Virus genome (UHGV): UHGV-0293664
DNA: 64,000 nt
Source: a virus
Strand: one strand, 5' to 3'
How positions within the stretch are numbered: the first letter of the stretch is position 1; every line of letters starts with the position of its first letter. The notes below the pieces were generated by a model, which saw only the letters and a list, made by a program, of their open reading frames with translations, was not told where the DNA came from and made no database searches. Positions 1,706-39,871 of this stretch are shown here, in pieces. Position numbers and translations under genes: made by a program.

Positions 1706-1906
1706 GATAGTTATACATCAGAACTGCACCACCTAAGATGGCTACCAGTAACAATACCCCAGATAGCATCTCAATAAACATGGCTTGAAACACTGGAAGG
1801 CCTCCCTAGATTAACGCACCATCTTAAATACATGCTCTTTTCCCATAAAGGTGCCTGGCTAAGATCTGCGTAGAACGCAATCTCTTTAAGAACAGTATAA
1901 ACAGTT

Positions 1907-2143
1907 TTAGGTGCGGTCTCCATTCCTACCCTCCTTTTTCTCCTTACGAATATTCTTGTAGTAATCAACCAGGCACATTATCACGATGAAGATAACAACA
2001 GGCCAAAAAGGTGCAGCAGTGATGATGGTGATAAAATCATCAAACTTCACCCTTCGTCTGGACACGATGCATACACCTGTCAAGAATACCGCTGTTATAA
2101 CGGACATTACCAGGTAACCTATTAGCACAACATTTATACTCAT
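1907..2143 (-). CDS. small two-TM membrane protein (holin-like topology)
   Basis: 78 aa with two hydrophobic helices and a charged C-terminus (KNIRKEKKEGRNGDRT); function is inference only. Confidence 0.35.
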   Translation of the reverse strand: MSINVVLIGYLVMSVITAVFLTGVCIVSRRRVKFDDFITIITAAPFWPVVIFIVIMCLVDYYKNIRKEKKEGRNGDRT

Positions 2144-2173
2144 TGGTCCTCCCTTTGTAGGTTAAATTGTATA

Positions 2174-2707
2174 CTACAAATGGTCGCTGAGGGTGTCAAG
2201 AAAATTATCCCGTTCTTTCTCAGAGTTTTCATGTGTGTAGCTGAAAAACATATCGAGAATAACCTTATTGATATATTCCAGCTCCTCTGTGTTCAGATGC
2301 TTAGCAGGATCTACAATGACATCCCAAATATCATACAGACCACACTCATGATACCCATAACGCCACTCAATTGTCAAGCTGAGCGGCAAATCTTTACCTT
2401 CACAAACAACCTTCCATCTACATATGTTGGTATCTGGTCGTACCTGTGCACGGTACACCTGTACAAAATCCAATTTGAATTTAAGGTACTCGTCATACAA
2501 TTTAAACACAAAGCTCTCGATTTGTGGAGACACTTTTGCAGCAAACTGTGCGTATTTGTACTTGCACTGGATGATCTTTCTGCGTTTTGCAGTTAAATTT
2601 TTTGCCGCCAGTTGTTCTTCGGTGTATCTCCACCTACGATCAACAAACGCAACAGGGTCTTTGTCCCCATAGAGGTCTTCCCAGTTAATCAGAAGCATAC
2701 CTGTCAC
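2174..2707 (-). CDS. hypothetical protein (177 aa)
   Basis: ORF with protein-like composition; no motif recognised. Confidence 0.45.
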   Translation of the reverse strand: MTGMLLINWEDLYGDKDPVAFVDRRWRYTEEQLAAKNLTAKRRKIIQCKYKYAQFAAKVSPQIESFVFKLYDEYLKFKLDFVQVYRAQVRPDTNICRWKVVCEGKDLPLSLTIEWRYGYHECGLYDIWDVIVDPAKHLNTEELEYINKVILDMFFSYTHENSEKERDNFLDTLSDHL

Positions 2708-2937
2708 TCCTCCACAACTTCAAGGCCTTTACCGCCTCGCTCTGGCAGATTACTTAAAGATAGGTAATACATATAATCAGGAGAGATCCTGCCAGACTCT
2801 GCACCTGCAGCTAGTAAATCCTTCCCTTTAACCAGGACAACATTCTCGTTTGCAGATAGCCGTTTTGCTTCCACAATTTTACCAACACAGTCAACCAAGG
2901 AAGGGTACCCTAAATCTGTAAGAAATTTAACTTTCAT
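2704..2937 (-). CDS. hypothetical protein (77 aa)
   Basis: ORF. Confidence 0.35.
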   Translation of the reverse strand: MKVKFLTDLGYPSLVDCVGKIVEAKRLSANENVVLVKGKDLLAAGAESGRISPDYMYYLSLSNLPERGGKGLEVVEE

Positions 2938-2976
2938 GCTACCTCCTACTTCTACCGTCCCTGGTAAGATAAATTA

Positions 2977-3375
2977 TTACTGAACAGAGCGCGGTGCTGG
3001 GAAGGATAACTCTTCTAAAGAGAAGATTTCATTTCCTACCACCCAAGTTGCTGGATCATCTGGGTCAACAGGCCGGATAATCATTACCTCATCCGCCTCG
3101 CACACACGTTTCCCACCTATAGTAGCGTCAGCCACTAACATACGCGGCTCTTCAGAAATGCACAGGTAGCCACCTCGGCCCACTGTTCCTTCCACGGGAT
3201 CCTGACCTTTGACCACAATGAATACCTTCTCTCCTGTGGCGATATTACTTTGCACCCTAACAGTTTGACCAACTTTAGATGTACCGATCTTGGTGGCTTC
3301 AAACATTAAATCCCGAATTACTGTTGCATAGTTGCCGGACACTTTCTTACCTTCTTTAGTAATCTCAATCTTCAT
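2977..3375 (-). CDS. hypothetical protein (132 aa)
   Basis: ORF. Confidence 0.45.
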   Translation of the reverse strand: MKIEITKEGKKVSGNYATVIRDLMFEATKIGTSKVGQTVRVQSNIATGEKVFIVVKGQDPVEGTVGRGGYLCISEEPRMLVADATIGGKRVCEADEVMIIRPVDPDDPATWVVGNEIFSLEELSFPAPRSVQ

Positions 3376-3647
3376 AATCTAGGCTCCTTAAATGAATCTA
3401 TGTAATCAATCAAATCCCAAGCATCGCGATGGGCTGTCAGAGGGTATACTTCTCCGAGAGGGATCATAGCAATAAGTCTATCAAAAACCCAGTCTGGACG
3501 CAACATTTTATGGTGATATTCCCACTCACCTTCCACAGATTTTTTCTGAGTGATCAGGATCTCTGTGTAGTGTTTCGCCTGTCTTGAGTAGATTGAAAAT
3601 GCCTTGTACATAAATGACCCCCTCTCTTGTTGAAAACAACAATACAC
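3372..3647 (-). CDS. hypothetical protein (91 aa)
   Basis: ORF. Confidence 0.4.
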   Translation of the reverse strand: MYCCFQQERGSFMYKAFSIYSRQAKHYTEILITQKKSVEGEWEYHHKMLRPDWVFDRLIAMIPLGEVYPLTAHRDAWDLIDYIDSFKEPRL

Positions 3648-3649
3648 AA

Positions 3650-3964
3650 CTACCAGGTTACTGTCAAGTAGGCAACCGTATTATTTTTCTCTGGGGAGAT
3701 GCCAACAACATCTACCTGCAGACCTCCTGCCCTTAAATCTCCAACAATGTGCGGGAAGTAATCTGAGAGATGCGATGGTAGATTTATCGAAAATCCGCAC
3801 CCCAGAAAGCCTGCTAACGCTTTATTTTGTATCTCCCCTACAATCGCATCATAAATGGAGTTAAGCTCGTCAGGGAGCGTTACAGGACGTTTTAGCGCTA
3901 ACTGGTGTAATTTGTCCTTAGCACTCATTTTCATTTCAGGTCTACCTCTGGTGGTGCCAACCAC
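3650..3964 (-). CDS. hypothetical protein (104 aa)
   Basis: ORF. Confidence 0.4.
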   Translation of the reverse strand: MVGTTRGRPEMKMSAKDKLHQLALKRPVTLPDELNSIYDAIVGEIQNKALAGFLGCGFSINLPSHLSDYFPHIVGDLRAGGLQVDVVGISPEKNNTVAYLTVTW

Positions 3965-4515: not shown

Positions 4516-5562
4516 TTAAGCTTCTTCGACAATTCCTGCACCCAGGATTTTTTCATTGAGCTCTTTTGCTGTTTTAATAATATTGTCCACCAGACGCTTG
4601 CGAGTCTTATCTTTCACCTTAACCTCTTCACCGCCGTTCAGAGTAGTCTTCAATTGAGACAGAATATCCTGAAGTTCAACGACAGAGAATCTCTGCAGAT
4701 CTTCTGAAGTAATCTCACTCAGGGCAATTCTGACGGTCTCGCCACTTTCCATCTGCAGATTCAGGAACACAGTGTGAACATCACCTTTCGAACCACCCGC
4801 TTTTGCAGATTCAACAGCATGAACTAACTCATCTAAAGATGTGCACTGGTGAATCTCCGGAAGACCTGCTTCACCTAACACGCCTTCATCACCTTTTGCC
4901 AGAAGCTTTTTAGGTTTTTGTCCGTTCTGGATGCGTTGTATGTTGCCTTCATCCAGAATAATAGCTCCAGTACGTGCTGCCAACTCTTCTCCGTCCAACC
5001 ACACTTCGCCACCAGCTGTGATGGATGCGATCTCATCTTCTGTCAGCACTCCACCGTAGTATTTTTCAATCAGGCGTTCAAAACGTTTTTTCCAGTAGCT
5101 GACCTGAGTATTCATGTTCACACCGTTACCATAAGTGCCACCTTGATAGTAGTGGAACATAAATTCTGTGTCCGGAGCCACAGTGCGCTCTTTGCAACCC
5201 AGCCATAAGATTGTTCCCGCAGAGCAGCACATCCCTTCAGCATGTGCAACAACGCTTGCCTGAGACTCGCGGAATGCCTGCAGATAAGCCATTGCAATGT
5301 GCACGCAACCCCCAGGGCTATTGATGATCACCCGAATGCTTTCTTCCGGCTGAGCCATACGGATCGTCTGCAGACGAGACATATGATCCTGCAGGTCTTC
5401 CAAATCGTCGATATAAAGAACGTGGTCAACAACAGGTGTTGGGTAGCTGTATGTTTCCATGATACCGCCCGGCATACCGAACATTTTATTACTCATAGGT
5501 TCGAAACCGTTCTGTTTTTCTTTCATGCCGCGTACCATGGTGCTGCGAGGTGTTAAATTCAT
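4516..5562 (-). CDS. ClpP-family (S14) serine protease with C-terminal charged extension
   Basis: INSPGG...GMCCSAG (active-site Ser context) and FMFHYYQGG (His) match the ClpP fold; about 150 aa of coiled/charged C-terminal tail. Confidence 0.7.
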   Translation of the reverse strand: MNLTPRSTMVRGMKEKQNGFEPMSNKMFGMPGGIMETYSYPTPVVDHVLYIDDLEDLQDHMSRLQTIRMAQPEESIRVIINSPGGCVHIAMAYLQAFRESQASVVAHAEGMCCSAGTILWLGCKERTVAPDTEFMFHYYQGGTYGNGVNMNTQVSYWKKRFERLIEKYYGGVLTEDEIASITAGGEVWLDGEELAARTGAIILDEGNIQRIQNGQKPKKLLAKGDEGVLGEAGLPEIHQCTSLDELVHAVESAKAGGSKGDVHTVFLNLQMESGETVRIALSEITSEDLQRFSVVELQDILSQLKTTLNGGEEVKVKDKTRKRLVDNIIKTAKELNEKILGAGIVEEA

Positions 5563-5989: not shown

Positions 5990-6919
5990 TCAACAATTGT
6001 CTTCTAGAAACTCTACAATATCATGAGAGTACCAGAACCACTCCGTTGCCCCGTCGAAACCTTCGAAGTGGCAGTTGCGATCTGCAAAGACTTTATGCAC
6101 CAATTTTTCAAGCTGCATGGTAGCACACCCCTGTTCGAAAGTAAATACTTTAAGCACGTGAACAGGAAAATTTGTGTTCCTTCTTATGTTGTATAGTCTG
6201 CTTTGTAGATTGATAGTCACCCCAACTTTTATAACCGTGGGAATGGTAAGATCATCAACAAGAAGGTACAGACAGCTCTCTTTAGTACTCTGCCTGAATC
6301 CTGAAGTAGAGCATTCTGGGCAACCGTTACCGCACAGGTGGTTTGCAGGCTGTTGAAGAAACTTACACCCGCAAGACTTGCAGATAATGGTTACAGGAGT
6401 GTGGGTATTCACATACTCCACTTCTGAATAGTCATATATGTCTCCGTGTAGTTGAGTAGCATCCTCTATGAATCTATCTTTAGACTTCCTCATCTTTTTA
6501 GCTGTCGCTCTTTTTCCACACTTGTAGCACCCACCAGCTAAATGATTTGCAACTGTCTGATTGAACTCTCCGTGGATGGGGCAAATAATAGTAACAATGT
6601 CGTTCCTGTTAGAAAAACTTTTTACAAGAGAGTAGTCATACTTTCCCTTGTGCAGTTCTGTTGCCCTTTTTACAAACTCCTCCTTGGACATTCGGAATCT
6701 CTCACTTAACTCCCTGTTCTTACAATCTGGGCATCCTGCGCCTATAAGGTGAGACTTAGGAGTTTTACTAAAAACTGTACCACACTTGTTGCACACTATA
6801 TCCACAGGTGTTGTGTTGTTTTTGTATACAACTTTGGAGTAATCATACTTGCCACCATGCTTATCAGTAGCTTTCTTGATAAACACTTCTTCTCGTGATA
6901 ACTGTTCTCCTAAACGCAT
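5990..6919 (-). CDS. zinc-ribbon-repeat protein with C-terminal T5orf172 (GIY-YIG-like) domain; putative homing endonuclease
   Basis: Three tandem ~65-aa repeats (KYDYS...CxxCG...HLxGxGCPxC) then a C-terminal segment with KVGVT...EKLVHK...GATEWF resembling T5orf172. Confidence 0.5.
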   Translation of the reverse strand: MRLGEQLSREEVFIKKATDKHGGKYDYSKVVYKNNTTPVDIVCNKCGTVFSKTPKSHLIGAGCPDCKNRELSERFRMSKEEFVKRATELHKGKYDYSLVKSFSNRNDIVTIICPIHGEFNQTVANHLAGGCYKCGKRATAKKMRKSKDRFIEDATQLHGDIYDYSEVEYVNTHTPVTIICKSCGCKFLQQPANHLCGNGCPECSTSGFRQSTKESCLYLLVDDLTIPTVIKVGVTINLQSRLYNIRRNTNFPVHVLKVFTFEQGCATMQLEKLVHKVFADRNCHFEGFDGATEWFWYSHDIVEFLEDNC

Positions 6920-8316: not shown

Positions 8317-8790
8317 TTAGTCAACCTGAACCCAACCGCCTGCTGTCTTTTTAAACATTCTTTGGTTATCACTACCTCTGAAGGGTTTTTTGGTTGGGTT
8401 ATCTTTCTCGTACTTACCATCCATAATGTAATCGACACTATCTTTAATGTGATCGGGAACCTCTTCAAACAAATACCCTGTGTACACCCAGATAGTTTTT
8501 GTGTTGCCGAAGCGTTCACGGATAGCGCGAATAATCGAGTACATACCATCAATATTATAAGGCGCTAAAGGTTCGCCACCGCATAATGTAACGCCAGTAA
8601 TATGTTTCGGCTCTACAGAGTGAAGTATACTCTCAATAGTGTCATTTGTTAACGGTTCCCCTTTAGCTGGTGACCAAACACTTTTGTTTTGGCAACCGAC
8701 GCAGTGATGTGGGCAACCAGAACAGAACACCGTTGTCCTAATGCCTGGGCCGTCAACCATACTACACTCTATAATATTAACAACATTCAT
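8317..8790 (-). CDS. nrdG: anaerobic ribonucleotide reductase activating protein (radical SAM)
   Basis: CSGCPHHCVGCQN radical-SAM CxxxCxxC cluster; size and position next to nrdD. Confidence 0.8.
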   Translation of the reverse strand: MNVVNIIECSMVDGPGIRTTVFCSGCPHHCVGCQNKSVWSPAKGEPLTNDTIESILHSVEPKHITGVTLCGGEPLAPYNIDGMYSIIRAIRERFGNTKTIWVYTGYLFEEVPDHIKDSVDYIMDGKYEKDNPTKKPFRGSDNQRMFKKTAGGWVQVD

Positions 8791-9022
8791 TCCTTATCCT
8801 CTTTGAGGTAGGGATATTCAGGCCACAATAAGCTCGATCTAAGAAAACAGCTTCTTCCCCTCTGGAATCGGTAGATCTATAATACCCATCACCATGGTAA
8901 CTAACGAACCAGTAGCACCCATCATCGCTTTCTACTGTTGTGGCTCTGTCCGAATGAAAGATAATTTCGTAATCCTTACCGAGTGTAAACCATCTGTTAG
9001 CTTTTACACAGACACCTATCAT
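8777..9022 (-). CDS. hypothetical protein (81 aa)
   Basis: ORF between nrdD and nrdG. Confidence 0.35.
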   Translation of the reverse strand: MIGVCVKANRWFTLGKDYEIIFHSDRATTVESDDGCYWFVSYHGDGYYRSTDSRGEEAVFLDRAYCGLNIPTSKRIRNECC

Positions 9023-9173: not shown

Positions 9174-9290
9174 TTATAAGTACTCCGCGTCGCATTCAGG
9201 ACAATGCCAAATAAAATCGTCCAGTGCCTTGCACCAACGAAGATTGCAACGACAACCACACTTGCAAATTTTATAAATACCTTTAGACAT
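9174..9290 (-). CDS. small Cys-rich (zinc-ribbon-like) protein, 38 aa
   Basis: Not in the ORF track (under 60 aa); AGGAGG six nt upstream of ATG; translation MSKGIYKICKCGCRCNLRWCKALDDFIWHCPECDAEYL. Confidence 0.3.
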   Translation of the reverse strand: MSKGIYKICKCGCRCNLRWCKALDDFIWHCPECDAEYL

Positions 9291-9353
9291 ACTGTACCTC
9301 CTAGCTCGCTGTGTGTCAATAATATGCCACATCCTTGTGGCTTTTGTCAAGTA

Positions 9354-10562
9354 TCAGCAACTACAACTTCCATAGTGCTTAACTCTCTCGATAACTTCCG
9401 CTTGCTTACCTTTATTATAAGGACGGGAGTTAGGACTGGAAAGGTATCCAGACACACGTCGAATTACACTGATCGTTCCCTCTTCATGGTTTCCACACTC
9501 TGGGCATACAAAGCCTTTAGCTGTTGCACTAAACTCACCAGAGAAACCACACTTGAGACATTTATCCACAGGTTGGTTAATACCAAAATACATAATGTGT
9601 TTATACCCGAAGTCAACAAGAGCCTCTAAAGCATCTAAGTTGTTTTTCAGATTTGGTGTCTCTACATATCCGATGTTGCCACCAGAGGAGATCATAGCAA
9701 AACCTTCCTCATACTTCCACTTATCAAAAGGAGAGCTATTGATCCATACTGGCTGATGGAAACTGTTGGTGAGATATTCATGCTCGTGCTTCAACACTTC
9801 AGGATATTCACGATCCAGACAGGTTGCAGCTTTATAGCATAGACTCTCAGAAGGGGTGCCGTACAAGCTAAACGCTAGTCTACTTTCCTTCTTGTATCGC
9901 TCACAAGCATCTCTCATGTGCTGAAGGATTCCAAGAGCTAAAGCCTTGTCACCCTCTCTGCCCAAAATCTGACAGGTTTCATACACACCAATATACCCAA
10001 TGCTGATGGAAGCGTACCCGTCATAGAAGAGTTTATCAATACTTTCTTCAGGATCCAGGCGAGCAAGAGCGCCTTCACACCACATGATGGGGTTCTGCCC
10101 TGCCTTTGTTCCTTTTAGACGGTTAACCCTTACAAGGTGAGCCTCGTATGCAAGATCCAAGTATTCGTCAAGAACTGCAAAGAAATCAACACCTTCCGTC
10201 TTAGCTTTTGCCGCAATCATTGGCAGGTTAAGGCTAACAACACCCAAGTTGAATCTGCCAAGGTATTTCTCCTCACCTGTTTCCAAGTCATTGTATTTGC
10301 TAAGAAAACTCCTGCAACCCATGCTAGTTACTTTGCCATCTGTCGAGCCTGTCACTTTTCTATTTAGTGGTACAGATACGAAGTCAGGGTAGATACGTTC
10401 TGCACAGCATTCCAGAGCTAATCGTTTCAAATCATAGTTAGGATCCCCAGGGTTCATGTTGACACCCTCTTCCAGGAAGAACAGCACTTTAGGGAACACA
10501 GGTGTAATACGTTCTTCACCAAGACCCATTTTGTGGACTTTCAAGTAGTTTTTGGTAATCAT
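9354..10562 (-). CDS. nrdD: anaerobic ribonucleoside-triphosphate reductase, C-terminal part (exon 2 of split gene)
   Basis: C-terminal Zn ribbon CLKCG...CPECG and glycyl-radical motif RVSGYLSS; lacks the N-terminal half found in the upstream ORF. Confidence 0.8.
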   Translation of the reverse strand: MITKNYLKVHKMGLGEERITPVFPKVLFFLEEGVNMNPGDPNYDLKRLALECCAERIYPDFVSVPLNRKVTGSTDGKVTSMGCRSFLSKYNDLETGEEKYLGRFNLGVVSLNLPMIAAKAKTEGVDFFAVLDEYLDLAYEAHLVRVNRLKGTKAGQNPIMWCEGALARLDPEESIDKLFYDGYASISIGYIGVYETCQILGREGDKALALGILQHMRDACERYKKESRLAFSLYGTPSESLCYKAATCLDREYPEVLKHEHEYLTNSFHQPVWINSSPFDKWKYEEGFAMISSGGNIGYVETPNLKNNLDALEALVDFGYKHIMYFGINQPVDKCLKCGFSGEFSATAKGFVCPECGNHEEGTISVIRRVSGYLSSPNSRPYNKGKQAEVIERVKHYGSCSC

Positions 10563-10870
10563 TCTACCAAAGACCGAGGTATCCAGTCCTAAACTTAATG
10601 TGATAAAAGGGGTTTGCGGTCCCCACCCTTATGTTTCCACAAGGCCAGACTATCTCTTGCCTGAAATCACACCGTGTGATTCTTAATCAGACCTCTGCGT
10701 TTCGGAATCTTCCATAATCCCTACACCAAAAGGTTAGTCGTTACAACCGCCTCACTCCTTGTGAAGCTAGTCACGGGATTGGCATAGCTTTCGCCTTAGC
10801 GTTCCCCGTTAGCCAGCGATCAGCTGACCCCTCATACTGAGGTTAGCAGAGTTTTAAAACGGCCAGTTTG
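10563..10870 (-). ncRNA. putative ORF-less group I intron interrupting nrdD
   Basis: About 310 nt GC-rich, stop-dense insert between the two nrdD ORFs; minus-strand GACUA/UAGUC-type elements; T4 nrdD (sunY) has an intron. Confidence 0.55.
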
Positions 10871-11734
10871 TTAACCGTTGACAGAAGTTAACGTATTTAT
10901 TTGATAGAGCAAAGTCTGCATGCTGTCAAATACGTCTTTATCTGTCATTTGCATTGCAACAGTCTCAGCATCTGGCAACCAATGTTCCTGGCAAAATTTA
11001 AGGTTCTTCTCATAGGTCGCTTCAGCATACTGTGCCAGATAATGATCAATATGGCTCATGGTCTGACCTCCATATTGAGCACTAGCTACTGCACTAGAGA
11101 TTTGGCTAAGGATTGTTGTTGCAACCCCTATTGACTTCGGCTTACTGACATGGGCGTTACCAATGTTGAATCCGTTTTCCAACATATCTGGATAGTTTAC
11201 CAAACAACAGTTTGTTAACGGACTGATCAAGTAGTCAAGATCATGCACATGGATGAAGCCTTTATTGTGCTCTTCTGAGACACGGTTTGGCAGGATCTGT
11301 GTTGATGCAAGGTGTTTGCTAAGGATGCCTGCAAGCAGGTCACGATGAGTGTGTACATGATTGGTAGGCTTATTTGCGTTTTCTTTTGTAAATTCATCAC
11401 AAGTGCGATCCAAGAAGCCACTAATATCTGCAAGCAGTTTTCCACCTGCCTCTCTGTTATTATCTCTTGTCTGCCTATACTGGATGTATTCTCTGGCTGC
11501 ACATTTTAAACCCATATCCATAAGAGCGTCTTCAACAAGGATATGGATATTTTTTACAGAGATCGTGCACTGGTCGGTTGGTAGATTGTTAGCAACAACT
11601 TCATTAACCGCGCAGGCGATCCGGTAAGCTTCTTCTTCAGTATGTCCAGACTCAAGTAAGGCGGACTCTGCCGCCTTGATCACCTTAATTCCGTTATAGA
11701 CCTCTTCTCTACCGTCCCGTTTTACAACTTTCAC
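10871..11734 (-). CDS. nrdD: anaerobic ribonucleoside-triphosphate reductase, N-terminal part (exon 1, ATP-cone)
   Basis: N-terminal ATP-cone-like MKVVKRDGREEVYNGIKV; colinear with the downstream C-terminal ORF. Confidence 0.8.
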   Translation of the reverse strand: MKVVKRDGREEVYNGIKVIKAAESALLESGHTEEEAYRIACAVNEVVANNLPTDQCTISVKNIHILVEDALMDMGLKCAAREYIQYRQTRDNNREAGGKLLADISGFLDRTCDEFTKENANKPTNHVHTHRDLLAGILSKHLASTQILPNRVSEEHNKGFIHVHDLDYLISPLTNCCLVNYPDMLENGFNIGNAHVSKPKSIGVATTILSQISSAVASAQYGGQTMSHIDHYLAQYAEATYEKNLKFCQEHWLPDAETVAMQMTDKDVFDSMQTLLYQINTLTSVNG

Positions 11735-35396: not shown

Positions 35397-35471
35397 GCCC
35401 TGTTAGCTTAGTGGATAAAGCAGCGGCCTTCTAAGCCGTTGACACTGGTTCGAGTCCAGTACGGGGTGCCA
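35397..35471 (+). tRNA. tRNA-Arg (anticodon UCU)
   Basis: Hand-folded cloverleaf: acceptor GCCCTGT/ACGGGGT (two G-U), D-stem GCTT/AAGC, anticodon loop CTTCTAA, T-arm ACTGG-TTCGAGT-CCAGT, CCA encoded. Confidence 0.65.
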
Positions 35472-35601
35472 AGTTCTTTTTAATGTAGCTTACTTTAGCA
35501 GAGTAAATCTTCGGCAAGTGGCGGTAACCACTTTACCGATACCTCATAGTTAGTGGTGAGAACACTAGCTATTTTAAAAAGAATTTAAATATTAGTATTT
35601 A

Positions 35602-35689
35602 GGTGAGTTAATTCCGTAGGGGTAGCGGGGCAGACTGTAAATCTGTTATCATTGCGATTCGGGTGGTTCGACTCCATCACTCACCACCA
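35602..35689 (+). tRNA. tRNA-Tyr (anticodon GUA), long variable arm
   Basis: Acceptor GGTGAGT/ACTCACC, anticodon arm GCAGA-CTGTAAA-TCTGT, long variable arm, T-loop TTCGACT, CCA encoded. Confidence 0.65.
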
Positions 35690-35803
35690 AATTTATATTT
35701 TTAAATGCATAAATCATACAGATAATGGCATTGATATTTATCGTCGTTTATACTAGTCACTAACTGCTCGAAAATCAGTGTCATTATCAGTATTGTTTAT
35801 AAA

Positions 35804-35894
35804 AGAGGGTAGGGAGCAATGGTGCTCAAGCGGTCTTGAAAACCGTCCCGTTGAGGATGACTCGATGATGGTTCGATTCCATTATCCTCTGCCA
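35804..35894 (+). tRNA. tRNA-Ser (anticodon UGA), class II
   Basis: Acceptor AGAGGGT/ATCCTCT, anticodon loop CTTGAAA, long variable arm, T-loop TTCGATT, CCA encoded. Confidence 0.6.
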
Positions 35895-35992
35895 TATTGT
35901 TGACCTTGTAATTAAGCGAAAGCCGGAAGCAGAACCGGATTATCAAATGTTACAGTCGTCATCGCCGACTAGCAACATGGTCAACATACTGA

Positions 35993-36089
35993 GCTAGGTA
36001 AGCCCTTTGGCAAGGGCGAGGATTTTTAATCCTGAAAATAGACGAGGTAGTCGTTGAATACATAGGTGGTTCGATTCCATCACCTAGCA
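35993..36089 (+). tRNA. atypical tRNA-like gene (97 nt; anticodon uncertain, possibly UUU)
   Basis: Perfect 7-bp acceptor GCTAGGT/ACCTAGC, D-stem GCCC/GGGC, T-arm GGTGG-TTCGATT-CCATC, but only a 4-bp anticodon stem AGGA/TCCT (loop TTTTTAA), a 30-nt extra region and no full CCA. Confidence 0.45.
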
Positions 36090-36096
36090 CCTTTTT

Positions 36097-36172
36097 GCTG
36101 ATGTAGCACAATTGGTAGTGCAATTGATTTGTAATCAATAGGTTGCAGGTTCGAGTCCTGCTATCAGCACCA
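36097..36172 (+). tRNA. tRNA-Thr (anticodon UGU)
   Basis: Acceptor GCTGATG/TATCAGC, D-stem GCAC/GTGC, anticodon arm ATTGA-TTTGTAA-TCAAT, T-arm GCAGG-TTCGAGT-CCTGC, CCA. Confidence 0.7.
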
Positions 36173-36173
36173 T

Positions 36174-36248
36174 GGCCCTGTAGCTGGAAGGTTCAAGCAA
36201 GCGACTCATAATCGCCAGACGGTGGTTCAATTCCACCCAGGGCCACCA
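36174..36248 (+). tRNA. tRNA-Met (anticodon CAU; initiator, elongator or Ile2 not distinguishable)
   Basis: Acceptor GGCCCTG/CAGGGCC, anticodon loop CTCATAA, T-arm GGTGG-TTCAATT-CCACC, CCA. Confidence 0.65.
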
Positions 36249-36259
36249 AATAATAAATA

Positions 36260-36336
36260 CTCCGCGTAGCTCAGCTTGGTAGAGCGCCTGATTTGGGATC
36301 AGGAGGTCGAGTGTTCGAATCACTCCGTGGAGACCA
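36260..36336 (+). tRNA. tRNA-Pro (anticodon UGG)
   Basis: Acceptor CTCCGCG/CGTGGAG, D-arm GCTC-AGCTTGGTA-GAGC, anticodon arm CCTGA-TTTGGGA-TCAGG, T-arm GAGTG-TTCGAAT-CACTC, CCA. Confidence 0.7.
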
Positions 36337-37157: not shown

Positions 37158-37441
37158 GAGTTGCTACACTGTTTATTGTGTGCTTGTTATTATGTGGGTG
37201 TGCAACCAGCGTTGAGAGAGAATACAAGATTGACCCTCCTGATGTAGGAAGGTTGATTGTTAAACCCCCGGAAGGTGCCATGAAACCACCTGCTAAAGCT
37301 ATGCCTTTGAAGAAAGGTGCGCCAGATGCAGTGAATTCTGGCATTATGAGGGATAATAATCTGTCTTGTAGCAATGATAGAGTTAAATTGATCATTTTGC
37401 AAGACTATATTAGAACACTGTTTCCAAAGGAGAGAGGTTAA
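37154..37441 (+). CDS. putative o-spanin (Rz1-like outer-membrane lipoprotein)
   Basis: Signal peptide with lipobox-like LLLCGC and a Pro-rich mature region (DPPDVG...KPPEGAMKPPAKAMP). Confidence 0.5.
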   Translation: MRVATLFIVCLLLCGCATSVEREYKIDPPDVGRLIVKPPEGAMKPPAKAMPLKKGAPDAVNSGIMRDNNLSCSNDRVKLIILQDYIRTLFPKERG

Positions 37442-37869
37442 TGTCTAAGATTTACGGACCGTGTTCTGAAAAGCAGAAGATGATCCTAGAAAACGATGCA
37501 GATATTTTGGTAATCGGCGGTGCCGCAGGGTCTGGCAAGTCGTTCCTCCTGCAGTTGATGCCGCTTAAAATTATTGATGACCCACACAGCTCTGTGGTTA
37601 TGTTCCGAAGAACAACTCCACAGTTGGAAGGTGAGGGTGGGCTATGGCCTAAAGCAGTAGCTATTTACAGTGATCTGCCTGAAAACATTAAACCAAAGTT
37701 CAGAGAAAAGGATCATAAGTTTATTTTTCCACGGTTTGATCCGAGCACTGGCAAGTGGGATAGGAGCAAAAAGGGGGCCGTTGTAAAATACTGCCACATG
37801 GAGTATGTCCAAGATAAGCTTAACCATCAAGGCCTTGAGTACACAATGGTTTGCTTCGATGAGGGTTAA
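37441..37869 (+). CDS. terminase large subunit, N-terminal ATPase part (exon 1 or split-gene part 1)
   Basis: Walker A VIGGAAGSGKS and Walker B MVCFDE; ORF stops right after Walker B. Confidence 0.75.
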   Translation: MSKIYGPCSEKQKMILENDADILVIGGAAGSGKSFLLQLMPLKIIDDPHSSVVMFRRTTPQLEGEGGLWPKAVAIYSDLPENIKPKFREKDHKFIFPRFDPSTGKWDRSKKGAVVKYCHMEYVQDKLNHQGLEYTMVCFDEG

Positions 37870-37916
37870 TTTGTAGCTCTCGTAAAACCTCCCTAATTGC
37901 GGGGAAATCTTTATTA

Positions 37917-37945
37917 TTGACACCACCAACCTGTCATGGTAACAT
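37917..37945 (+). promoter_or_regulatory. sigma70-like promoter inside the intron-like element
   Basis: TTGACA (37917-37922), 17-nt spacer, TAACAT (37940-37945). Confidence 0.4.
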
Positions 37946-38084
37946 GATAGAGGCTTCGAAGAGAGATCGAAGGTATGGTAACAGTGTGTTAATTTAGATA
38001 ATCCGCAGCGAAGCATCCGAAAGGATGAACGTTCAACGACTAGTCGAAAGACGTAGAATCAAGCGATTCGAAACGGGAGGGTGA

Positions 38085-38675
38085 ATGTGTAATACTAAAA
38101 AATGTATGGATTGCCAAAGAGTTCTACCTCTTGATGATTTCTTTTTATCATCTAAGAGCAAGGATGGATACTCCGGTACATGCAAGGAATGCTATATGTA
38201 CTACAGGAAGAATGGATCTCGTAGAAACAAAAATATGGTTAAGAGAGATGATGCAGCATCTTTTATTCAAGACTTACTGAAGAAAGGTGAGCTTTTTGAA
38301 TGTAAATCTTGTCATGAAAGTATGCTTGCTGATAGTTTTTACACAAAACGTGACTATGGTAAAGTGTATCTGGTTACGAACAGGTGTAAGATGTGTGAAA
38401 AGTTTTATCAGATTGAGAAGAAATTTCACATAACAAAAGATGAATACTATCGTTTACTCTCAGATCAAGATCATAAGTGTGCCATTTGTAGAATATCTCT
38501 TGATGAGTATAGGACGCAAGGGTACAGAGATTTCTTTTGTGTTGATCATGACCATAAAACTGGTGCTGTAAGAGGGTTGCTTTGTGATAAATGCAACAGA
38601 GCTTTAGGTTTCTTCCAAGAGGATGAGGAAACCATTCTTAGAGCAGCAGAGTATTTGCACATTCATAAGATATAG
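38085..38675 (+). CDS. HNH / endonuclease VII-like homing endonuclease
   Basis: CVDHDHKTGAVRGLLCDKCNRALGFF EndoVII/HNH catalytic core plus N-terminal Cys clusters; lies within the terminase interruption. Confidence 0.7.
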   Translation: MCNTKKCMDCQRVLPLDDFFLSSKSKDGYSGTCKECYMYYRKNGSRRNKNMVKRDDAASFIQDLLKKGELFECKSCHESMLADSFYTKRDYGKVYLVTNRCKMCEKFYQIEKKFHITKDEYYRLLSDQDHKCAICRISLDEYRTQGYRDFFCVDHDHKTGAVRGLLCDKCNRALGFFQEDEETILRAAEYLHIHKI

Positions 38676-38782
38676 TCTGGTCTGCATGGAGACATGCAGC
38701 TGCCTGAAAATGGCGGGGCAAGACTAGCGACCTTGCCCGAACATAAACGACGCAGTTCGAATGGGAGCAGATAGACTATCTG

Positions 38783-39871
38783 ATGTCTCGTCTGCGATCT
38801 CAGTCAAAGTATCCATCAAGAATGGTTATCAGCTGTAACCCCGATTCAGAACACATGCTTGCCAAACTGGTTAGGTGGTGGTTGGACGATGAAGGGTATC
38901 CAGATCCGGAGAAATGCGGTAAGAAAAGATATTTTATCCGACGCGACGGTGAATTTATCTGGGGAGACTCTAAAGAAGAGTTGATAGAGAAATACACCAC
39001 GGTTAACGGACTGGGTGTAGAGATCAAGCCGAGACCGTTGTCATTCTCGTTTATAGGCGCAACAATCTTCGATAATCCTGTCTGTTTGAGAGACAACCCA
39101 GAATACCTTGCTTTCCTTGAAGGTCTACCCGAGCTTGAAAAAGCTCAGCTTCTTCATGGCAACTGGTTTGCCAAACCTGAGGGTGCGAACTATTTCCAAA
39201 GATCTTTCCTTCGTGATGCCGATAGAGTACCACTTGGATCAGTATCTTGCAGGGCATGGGATAAAGCTGGAACTGAAAGAACTTCAGGTAATAAATTCCC
39301 TGACTTTACCGCCAGTGTTAAGGTAAGTAAAGATAGCGACGGCTTTTATTACCTGTCCGGTTATTATTGTCCTGAGAACGTGGATGACGGGAGGTATTCC
39401 ACAGGTCTGGAAGGTAAGTTCTGTAAAAAGGCTGGTGAACGAGATGTGATCATCAGGAAACAGGCACAGTTTGATGGTGATGATTGTATAATCGTATTCT
39501 CTGTGGACCCCGGTCAGGCAGGTAAGAGTGAGTTCTTAACTTCCTCCAGATCCTTACTCGCCGAAGGGTTTAGGGTTGAAGAAGACCCAATGCCTTCCAA
39601 CAAATCTAAACTAACAAGGTTCTCACCTTTTGCCAATCTTGCCCAACAAGGAATGGTGAGGATTGTAAAATCCAGTTTTCATCCTGATACTCTGGAAGCA
39701 TTTCTGACTGAACTTGAAAAATTCAACGGGGAAAGATCAACATTTAACAGAAAAGACGACTGGGCCGACTGTGTAGCTTCTGCGATTAATTTCCTGGAGA
39801 AAGAGGAGGTAGCACTTCCTTGTGTTATTCCATCAATCTCATCACCTTCTATGTTCAAGCGTTTTATCTAA
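38783..39871 (+). CDS. terminase large subunit, C-terminal nuclease part (exon 2 or part 2)
   Basis: Continues colinearly after the Walker B region; acidic catalytic-type residues (VDPGQAGKSE, DDWADCVASA); true 5' boundary undetermined. Confidence 0.7.
   Translation: MSRLRSQSKYPSRMVISCNPDSEHMLAKLVRWWLDDEGYPDPEKCGKKRYFIRRDGEFIWGDSKEELIEKYTTVNGLGVEIKPRPLSFSFIGATIFDNPVCLRDNPEYLAFLEGLPELEKAQLLHGNWFAKPEGANYFQRSFLRDADRVPLGSVSCRAWDKAGTERTSGNKFPDFTASVKVSKDSDGFYYLSGYYCPENVDDGRYSTGLEGKFCKKAGERDVIIRKQAQFDGDDCIIVFSVDPGQAGKSEFLTSSRSLLAEGFRVEEDPMPSNKSKLTRFSPFANLAQQGMVRIVKSSFHPDTLEAFLTELEKFNGERSTFNRKDDWADCVASAINFLEKEEVALPCVIPSISSPSMFKRFI

Follow-up and report, generated by a model that had tools for sequence, protein, structure and literature searches.

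A predicted group I intron without an ORF in the nrdD gene of a Vequintavirus, and its HNH-bearing relatives

In phage T4, nrdD, a class III reductase gene, carries the sunY intron, an IA-type group I intron of 1033 nt, which possesses P7.1 and P7.2 but no P2, and holds the I-TevII ORF (GIY-YIG, from its annotation) after the P1–P9 core. A separate set, the HNH-encoding introns of Gram-positive phages, with which the SPO1 intron and its endonuclease I-HmuI are grouped, includes the DNA polymerase intron of the Listeria phages LP-114 and P70, and an intron of Bacillus phage S4-2. Closer to the locus described here, BASEL records of Vequintaviruses such as RudolfGeigy (MZ501102), AlexBoehm (MZ501048) and HeinrichReichert (MZ501073) join the nrdD CDS across an intron, with boundaries set by comparative genomics (Maffei et al., 2021, PMC8594841). 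Comparison of the BASEL CDS spans with the 1911-nt intron-less CDS of DrSchubert indicates that exactly 257 nt are removed in RudolfGeigy and 797 nt in WalterGehring. The rV5 genome paper discusses terminase introns only, and no ribozyme structure, splicing experiment or other description of this nrdD intron was found in the searchable literature.

The window, that is the whole stretch of 64,000 nt that was analysed (UHGV virus genome UHGV-0293664), belongs to a Vequintavirus (rV5-like coliphage), and the 2.5 kb around nrdD are 96–97% identical to many such genomes. The gene order on the minus strand, with names assigned from the RudolfGeigy annotation, is nrdA, nrdB, glutaredoxin, nrdD, two small ORFs, nrdG (intact) and a PhoH-like gene. 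An earlier note on this DNA had placed two nrdD ORFs at 10871–11734 and 9354–10562 on the minus strand, 308 nt apart, and the ORF list confirms these positions. The intron-like insertion of ∼310 nt that it described is the gap between the ORFs, and not the intron itself: the latter spans 257 nt, and 54 nt of the gap are coding sequence of exon 2. Its description as GC-rich holds only marginally, at 48% GC for the intron versus 42–47% in 250-nt windows of the flanking gene. The locus is organized as follows:

10874–11734, minus strand: nrdD exon 1 (ORF list), with a GTG start overlapping the glutaredoxin stop and ending in GUC AAC GGU (V N G); it encodes the ATP-cone and the N-terminal part of the NRDD domain (Pfam)
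10617–10873, minus strand: group I intron of 257 nt with no ORF, beginning UAACAAACUGGCCGUU and ending GGGGACCG, identified from the junction, Rfam RF00028, the fold and covariation
9354–10616, minus strand: nrdD exon 2, in frame after the terminal G, starting CAA ACC CCU UUU (Q T P F), stop codon included; it encodes the glycyl-radical domain and the Zn ribbon

The small ORFs downstream of nrdD (8777–9022 and 9174–9350) have no Pfam match. In WalterGehring (L002), a 330-aa 'putative homing endonuclease' (4525–5517) lies immediately downstream of nrdD, where the window has the two small ORFs alone. Some 2.4 kb past the 3′ end of nrdD, and ∼3.7 kb from the intron, a 309-aa ORF (5990–6919, minus strand) combines repeated zinc-finger-like modules (DUF723, DUF4379) with a C-terminal T5orf172/MUG113 domain, and looks like a free-standing homing-endonuclease-like gene.

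I next consider the junction. Alignment of the halves shows that an uninterrupted NrdD results when they are joined with a U before the 5′ site and a G closing the 3′ site, as the earlier proposal of an intron implies. Among the G-terminated 3′ sites, a single one leads in frame into conserved NrdD sequence, so that exon 1 ends at 10874 and exon 2 begins at 10616; with 10617 as the terminal G, the joined frame reads NG/QTPF (the slash marks the junction), as in T4 NrdD and in intron-less alleles, which no other 3′ site allows. Exon 2 thus takes in the 54 nt that precede the ATG at 10562, 18 codons (QTPFITLSLGLDTSVFGR) of conserved NrdD sequence. The joined product of 707 aa aligns to T4 NrdD without gaps across the junction SVNG/QTPF (E = 2e-167), with ...SVNG/QTPFITLSLG... 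in the window facing ...SSNGQTPFVTITFG... in T4, and shows a single Pfam NRDD match over model positions 1–562 of 562, together with an ATP-cone (residues 1–91) and a Gly_radical match. At the nucleotide level, the predicted spliced junction of the window is ...GUCAACGGU/CAAACCCC, and intron-less alleles (rV5 and five other Vequintavirus alleles) read GTCAACGGG/CAAACTCC uninterrupted. A synthetic joined junction matches rV5 and many other Vequintaviruses contiguously, and the spliced CDS is 2124 nt long, equal to the intron-less CDS of rV5. The DNA comparison leaves a 1-nt ambiguity at the boundary (GGG vs GG-T...C-G), both choices encoding Gly; I set the boundary with U before and G last, the alternative being at odds with P1. 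In the BASEL records, the annotated start of nrdD lies 213 nt inside the reading frame that opens with the GTG of the window and of rV5, and the ATP-cone is thereby dropped (CDS 1780–3947 in RudolfGeigy, L001, versus a start at 11734 in the window); this is probably a mis-annotated start codon.

The RNA elements of the intron, all on the minus strand, are listed below. In intron numbering, the window coordinate is 10874 minus the position.

P1: exon AACGGU (10874–10879) with the internal guide GCCGUU (10858–10863; intron 11–16), by direct reading
P2: none
P3 5′ strand, 10846–10851 (intron 23–28): CUCUGC, from the MFE fold, with a G-C, C-G or U.G exchange at one pair
Two extra hairpins resembling P3.1 and P3.2, 10811–10842 (intron 32–44 and 45–63): between P3 and J3/4, from the MFE fold and compensatory changes
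P4-P5-P4′, 10773–10809: ACGGGG, GAAA tetraloop, UCCCGU, from pair counts; P4 pairs intron 65–70 with 96–101, and P5 is intron 74–92 with the GAAA loop
P6, 10749–10767 (intron 107–125): GCUUCAC-AAGGA-GUGAGGC, from the MFE fold and pair counts
P7 5′ strand, 10735–10739 (intron 135–139): GACUA, the guanosine-binding helix, forming a pseudoknot with P3, from pair counts and the Rfam alignment
P7.1 and P7.2, 10704–10734: ACC-UUUU-GGU (intron 140–149) and GGGAUU-AUGGAA-GAUUCC (intron 153–170), from the MFE fold, a hallmark of subgroup IA; by direct reading, the P7.2 helix also forms, from other sequences, in the HNH-type introns and in that of L019 (three lineages)
P3 3′ strand, 10693–10698 (intron 176–181): GCAGAG, from pair counts
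P8, 10659–10692 (intron 182–215): the loop (10665–10684) is a vestige of an HNH ORF
P7 3′ strand, 10648–10652 (intron 222–226): UAGUC, preceded by J8/7 AAGAGA, from pair counts and Rfam
P9.0, P9 and 3′ tail, 10617–10646: P9.0 pairs intron 228–229 with 255–256; P9 (CCUUGUG-GAAA-CAUAAGG, intron 230–247) has a GAAA loop and four pairs changed on both sides; the tail runs to the terminal G at 10617 (intron 257); from pair counts

P1 places a U.G wobble at the 5′ splice site, and all 7 of its pairs form in each of 8 sequences. P10 is weak: on reading, two base pairs (CA with UG) can be drawn in the window, and three in the HNH form. The optional 'P3.1' of group I introns, as listed in PMC3873408, has its counterpart in the extra hairpins that follow P3, and hairpins analogous to these recur in related phage introns. 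By the presence of P7.1 and P7.2 and the lack of P2, the intron can be classified as IA2 type, the choice between IA1, IA2 and IA3 being made by resemblance to the T4 introns.

Several lines of evidence point to a group I core on the minus strand, as the earlier note had suspected. The Rfam model RF00028 (Intron_gpI) matches end to end (model 1–253) at 10627–10883 on the minus strand with 29.2 bits (E = 1.6e-5 in a local search of 601 nt, 0.0017 over the whole window), and the core segments conserved in the Rfam consensus can be recognized in the intron. This is below the gathering score of 50, and the intron fails the Rfam threshold: scanning the window at gathering thresholds returned tRNAs only, and the intron surfaces just in E-value mode. 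Low scores are frequent for phage IA introns under this general model. The GACUA and UAGUC elements that the note had pointed out are indeed present, and pair as P7. An unconstrained MFE fold recovers P3, P4–P6, P7.1, P7.2, P8 and P9, with a z-score of −3.98, and none of 200 shuffled sequences folds as well.

I also compared eight distinct introns from the same site, representing about three independent lineages and including the sequence from which the structure was derived: 95.5% of the cells pair, and 14 pairs are changed on both sides. The observed pairing, double-change counts and covariation score were each reached by none of 500 shuffles, and versions with the partner strand slid pair at just 32–48%. 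Automatic MAFFT alignment of the ORF-trimmed introns misaligned P7.1–P8 between the two forms, and pairs were counted on chimeric cores without P7.1, P7.2 and P8; these three helices rest on folding and reading. P3 occurs as CUCUGC with GCAGAG, CUCUCC with GGAGAG, CUCUUC with GGAGAG, and CUCCUC with GAGGAG, the last in a divergent metagenomic nrdD (L039). Between the window and RudolfGeigy, the intron differs at 2 of 257 positions (35 and 180), each change turning a Watson-Crick pair into a G.U wobble.

In the HNH-type introns (L006/L002, L008–L010), the segment GAAAGGCAGAG, located in an enlarged P7.1 just 3′ of the P7 GACUAA, closely mimics the P3 3′ segment of the ORF-less form (GAAACGCAGAG). 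I considered it as the P3 3′ strand of the HNH form and rejected it as a look-alike, the true partner of CUCUCC being GGAGAG further downstream. The look-alike may be a duplication or recombination scar.

About 121 Vequintavirus records match this nrdD, of which 14 carry the 257-nt form (at least 99% identity) and ∼28 a long form, the rest having no intron at the site. The long form (795–798 nt, the 797-nt type, in FV3, FFH2, slur16, WalterGehring and others) shares the insertion site and the P1 guide with the window, and its core is 87% identical to that of the ORF-less form. It differs by a longer P7.1, by a P3 of CUCUCC with GGAGAG, by the 3′ exon marker CAG, and by an ORF in L8, encoding a 177-aa HNH endonuclease (Pfam HNH_3, and a weak I-HmuI NUMOD-like match). 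This ORF lies wholly in the P8 loop, its AUG overlapping the P8 5′ strand and its stop preceding J8/7. In the window there is no ORF in the 257 nt, and the P8 loop (10665–10684) is identical at 17 of 20 positions to nucleotides 26–45 of the HNH ORF, a score reached by none of 2000 shuffles. Because the loop keeps this 20-nt vestige, I interpret the ORF-less form as a deletion derivative of the HNH form. The proposal of an intron in nrdD without a homing endonuclease is thus borne out, the vestige being all that is left of one, and tblastn found no homolog of the relatives' HNH protein elsewhere in the window (best E = 0.45).

The same NG/Q site is also occupied outside this genus. A contig from an uncultured, unrelated phage, whose neighbouring genes resemble those of ∼100-kb Aeromonas phages, has a related intron there that encodes a homologous HNH (46% amino acid identity), and the divergent metagenomic nrdD (L039) has an intron with a truncated ORF. 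In the metagenome scan, three new matches among a total of 29 were real (L039, L044 and L056), and L043 proved to be the same contig as L014. Bacterial genomes scanned for the P1 pattern gave 26 matches, none with a P4 core downstream; I regard these as chance, because 18 fixed bases should turn up ∼50 times in 596 Gb.

The reading that I consider highly probable is that an IA2-type group I intron lies in nrdD, separating the codon for Gly from that for Gln in NGQTPF, that it derives from an HNH-bearing mobile intron through loss of the ORF, and that it is predicted to splice. The steps can be laid out from group I chemistry. The nrdD gene would be transcribed as one pre-mRNA, in which the first codon of the intron, UAA, would end translation of the unspliced RNA. 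The intron would fold (P1, P3–P9, P7.1/P7.2) and bind a free guanosine in P7, leading to cleavage after the U of GGU, held in the U.G pair of P1. The freed exon 1 would then attack after the terminal G (10617), and the joined exons would form the mRNA for the 707-aa NrdD. The ancestor would have been a mobile intron with an HNH homing endonuclease encoded in the P8 loop; with that gene deleted except for the 20-nt vestige, the copy in the window would depend for any further spread on recombination, or on an endonuclease provided in trans.

Could the insertion instead stay in the RNA, with NrdD made as two polypeptides that assemble? Such assembly is reported for Aeromonas phage Aeh1, whose NrdA is split by mobE. 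Non-splicing HNH insertions in phage genes are a described precedent (PMC7344957), and here exon 1 does reach an in-frame UAA while exon 2 holds an ATG at 10562. However, this ATG lies 18 codons inside conserved sequence, such that QTPFITLSLGLDTSVFGR would be lost, no clear ribosome-binding site is apparent on reading upstream of it, and a complete ribozyme core with compensatory changes would not be kept if it were never spliced; I consider such a split gene very improbable indeed. It is similarly very improbable that the intron is decayed and catalytically dead, nrdD being a pseudogene in a phage that does without its class III reductase. The deleted ORF, the weak P10 and the sub-threshold Rfam score would be consistent with decay, and a copy unable to splice could survive in laboratory-propagated phages, as the gene is probably not needed in aerobic culture. 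Yet both exons are intact ORFs with full-length domain matches, nrdG is intact downstream, and the intron is 99.2–99.6% identical across 14 phage records, with the rare changes keeping the pairing.

The last alternative, which almost certainly does not hold, is that this is the ortholog of the T4 sunY intron, having lost I-TevII. The two are alike in several respects: both are IA-type group I introns in the same conserved stretch of a class III reductase gene, both have P7.1 and P7.2 and no P2, and their P3 context is similar (UAAAAUCUGCC vs UAAAACUCUGC). However, the T4 site (GAGT/ATGAA) is 32 nt upstream of the window site in the aligned gene, the T4 intron has no extra hairpins after P3, and the ORF-bearing relatives of the window intron have an HNH in L8, not a GIY-YIG after the P9 core. 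With neither the same site nor an I-TevII ORF, the window intron falls outside the sunY lineage. Moreover, a more sunY-like intron sits at another nrdD site, TSMG/CRSF, in JEP1 and phita32, and none is present there in the window. The earlier suggestion of a compact counterpart of sunY is therefore right as to a group I intron, ORF-less, in nrdD, but the relation is one of analogy and not of orthology, as insertion site and endonuclease family differ.

The TSMG/CRSF site is in the active-site cysteine region, and its intron was observed in JEP1 (∼1485–1995 in L010), phita32 (3527–4278 in L003), L014 and L019; it occurs with or without an ORF, and its core closely resembles those of T4 sunY and td.

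The introns of Gram-positive phages show another kind of likeness. The P4–P5 segment of the window intron matches the Listeria (LP-114, P70) and Bacillus (S4-2) phage introns with 85–88% identity over ∼50 nt, and they share with the window lineage the hairpins before J3/4 and associated endonucleases of HNH type. In contrast, their host genes, P1 and periphery differ, and their ORF begins immediately past P4 (probably within the P6 loop), and not in L8.

The window contains a further group I intron, at 37857–38699 on the plus strand (RF00028, 47.0 bits against the gathering score of 50, E = 8e-9), splitting the large terminase gene (flanking ORFs 37441–37869 and 38783–39871). Its internal ORF (38085–38675) encodes a 196-aa protein of Endonuclease_7 type (HNH-superfamily), and the intron has its counterpart in the terminase intron reported from rV5 (PMC3606486). 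At least six tRNA genes are clustered shortly before the terminase region (35397–36333, plus strand), with a tRNA-Sec-like sub-threshold match at 35804–35890 in the same cluster.

The exons flanking the nrdD intron carry markers of its history. A T is found at −1 in all intron-bearing alleles; G at +3 marks the HNH form, and positions +6, +9 and +12 read C, T/G and T in the ORF-less form. RudolfGeigy and L014 share an additional foreign tract of ∼60 nt 5′ of the site, absent from the window. The BASEL intron lies in the same gene and at the same site, but its exons carry a 5′ co-conversion tract different from that of the window. Between the window and RudolfGeigy, the exons differ at 81 of 2124 positions (∼4%), whereas the intron is 99.2% identical over 257 nt. 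These exon markers and the divergence between intron and exons are, at the level of sequence, what homing with co-conversion and a later loss of the endonuclease gene would be expected to leave. It is conceivable, though I hold it doubtful, that the ORF-less intron continues to move between Vequintaviruses that circulate together, mobilised in trans ('collaborative homing') either by the HNH that the sibling 797-nt intron encodes or by a free-standing endonuclease cutting at NG/Q. This suggestion is drawn from the near-identity of the intron among the 14 records despite the ∼4% exon divergence, and from the variation in exon backgrounds and co-conversion tract lengths.

The feature described here is real, is already annotated in near-identical phages, and is ordinary for phage reductase genes. 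Its practical consequence concerns annotation: the automatic procedure splits nrdD into two 'NrdD' fragments, as in many GenBank records of related phages, where the correct product would be one 707-aa protein with its ATP-cone. For the Vequintaviruses, a single site in a single genus offers the empty allele, the HNH-bearing intron and the ORF-less derivative, which correspond to stages of the homing-intron life cycle, and in an unrelated nrdD (L039) this site is taken by a copy with a truncated ORF. The NG/Q site is thus a convenient natural data set for these stages, in which established ideas are confirmed and left unchanged.
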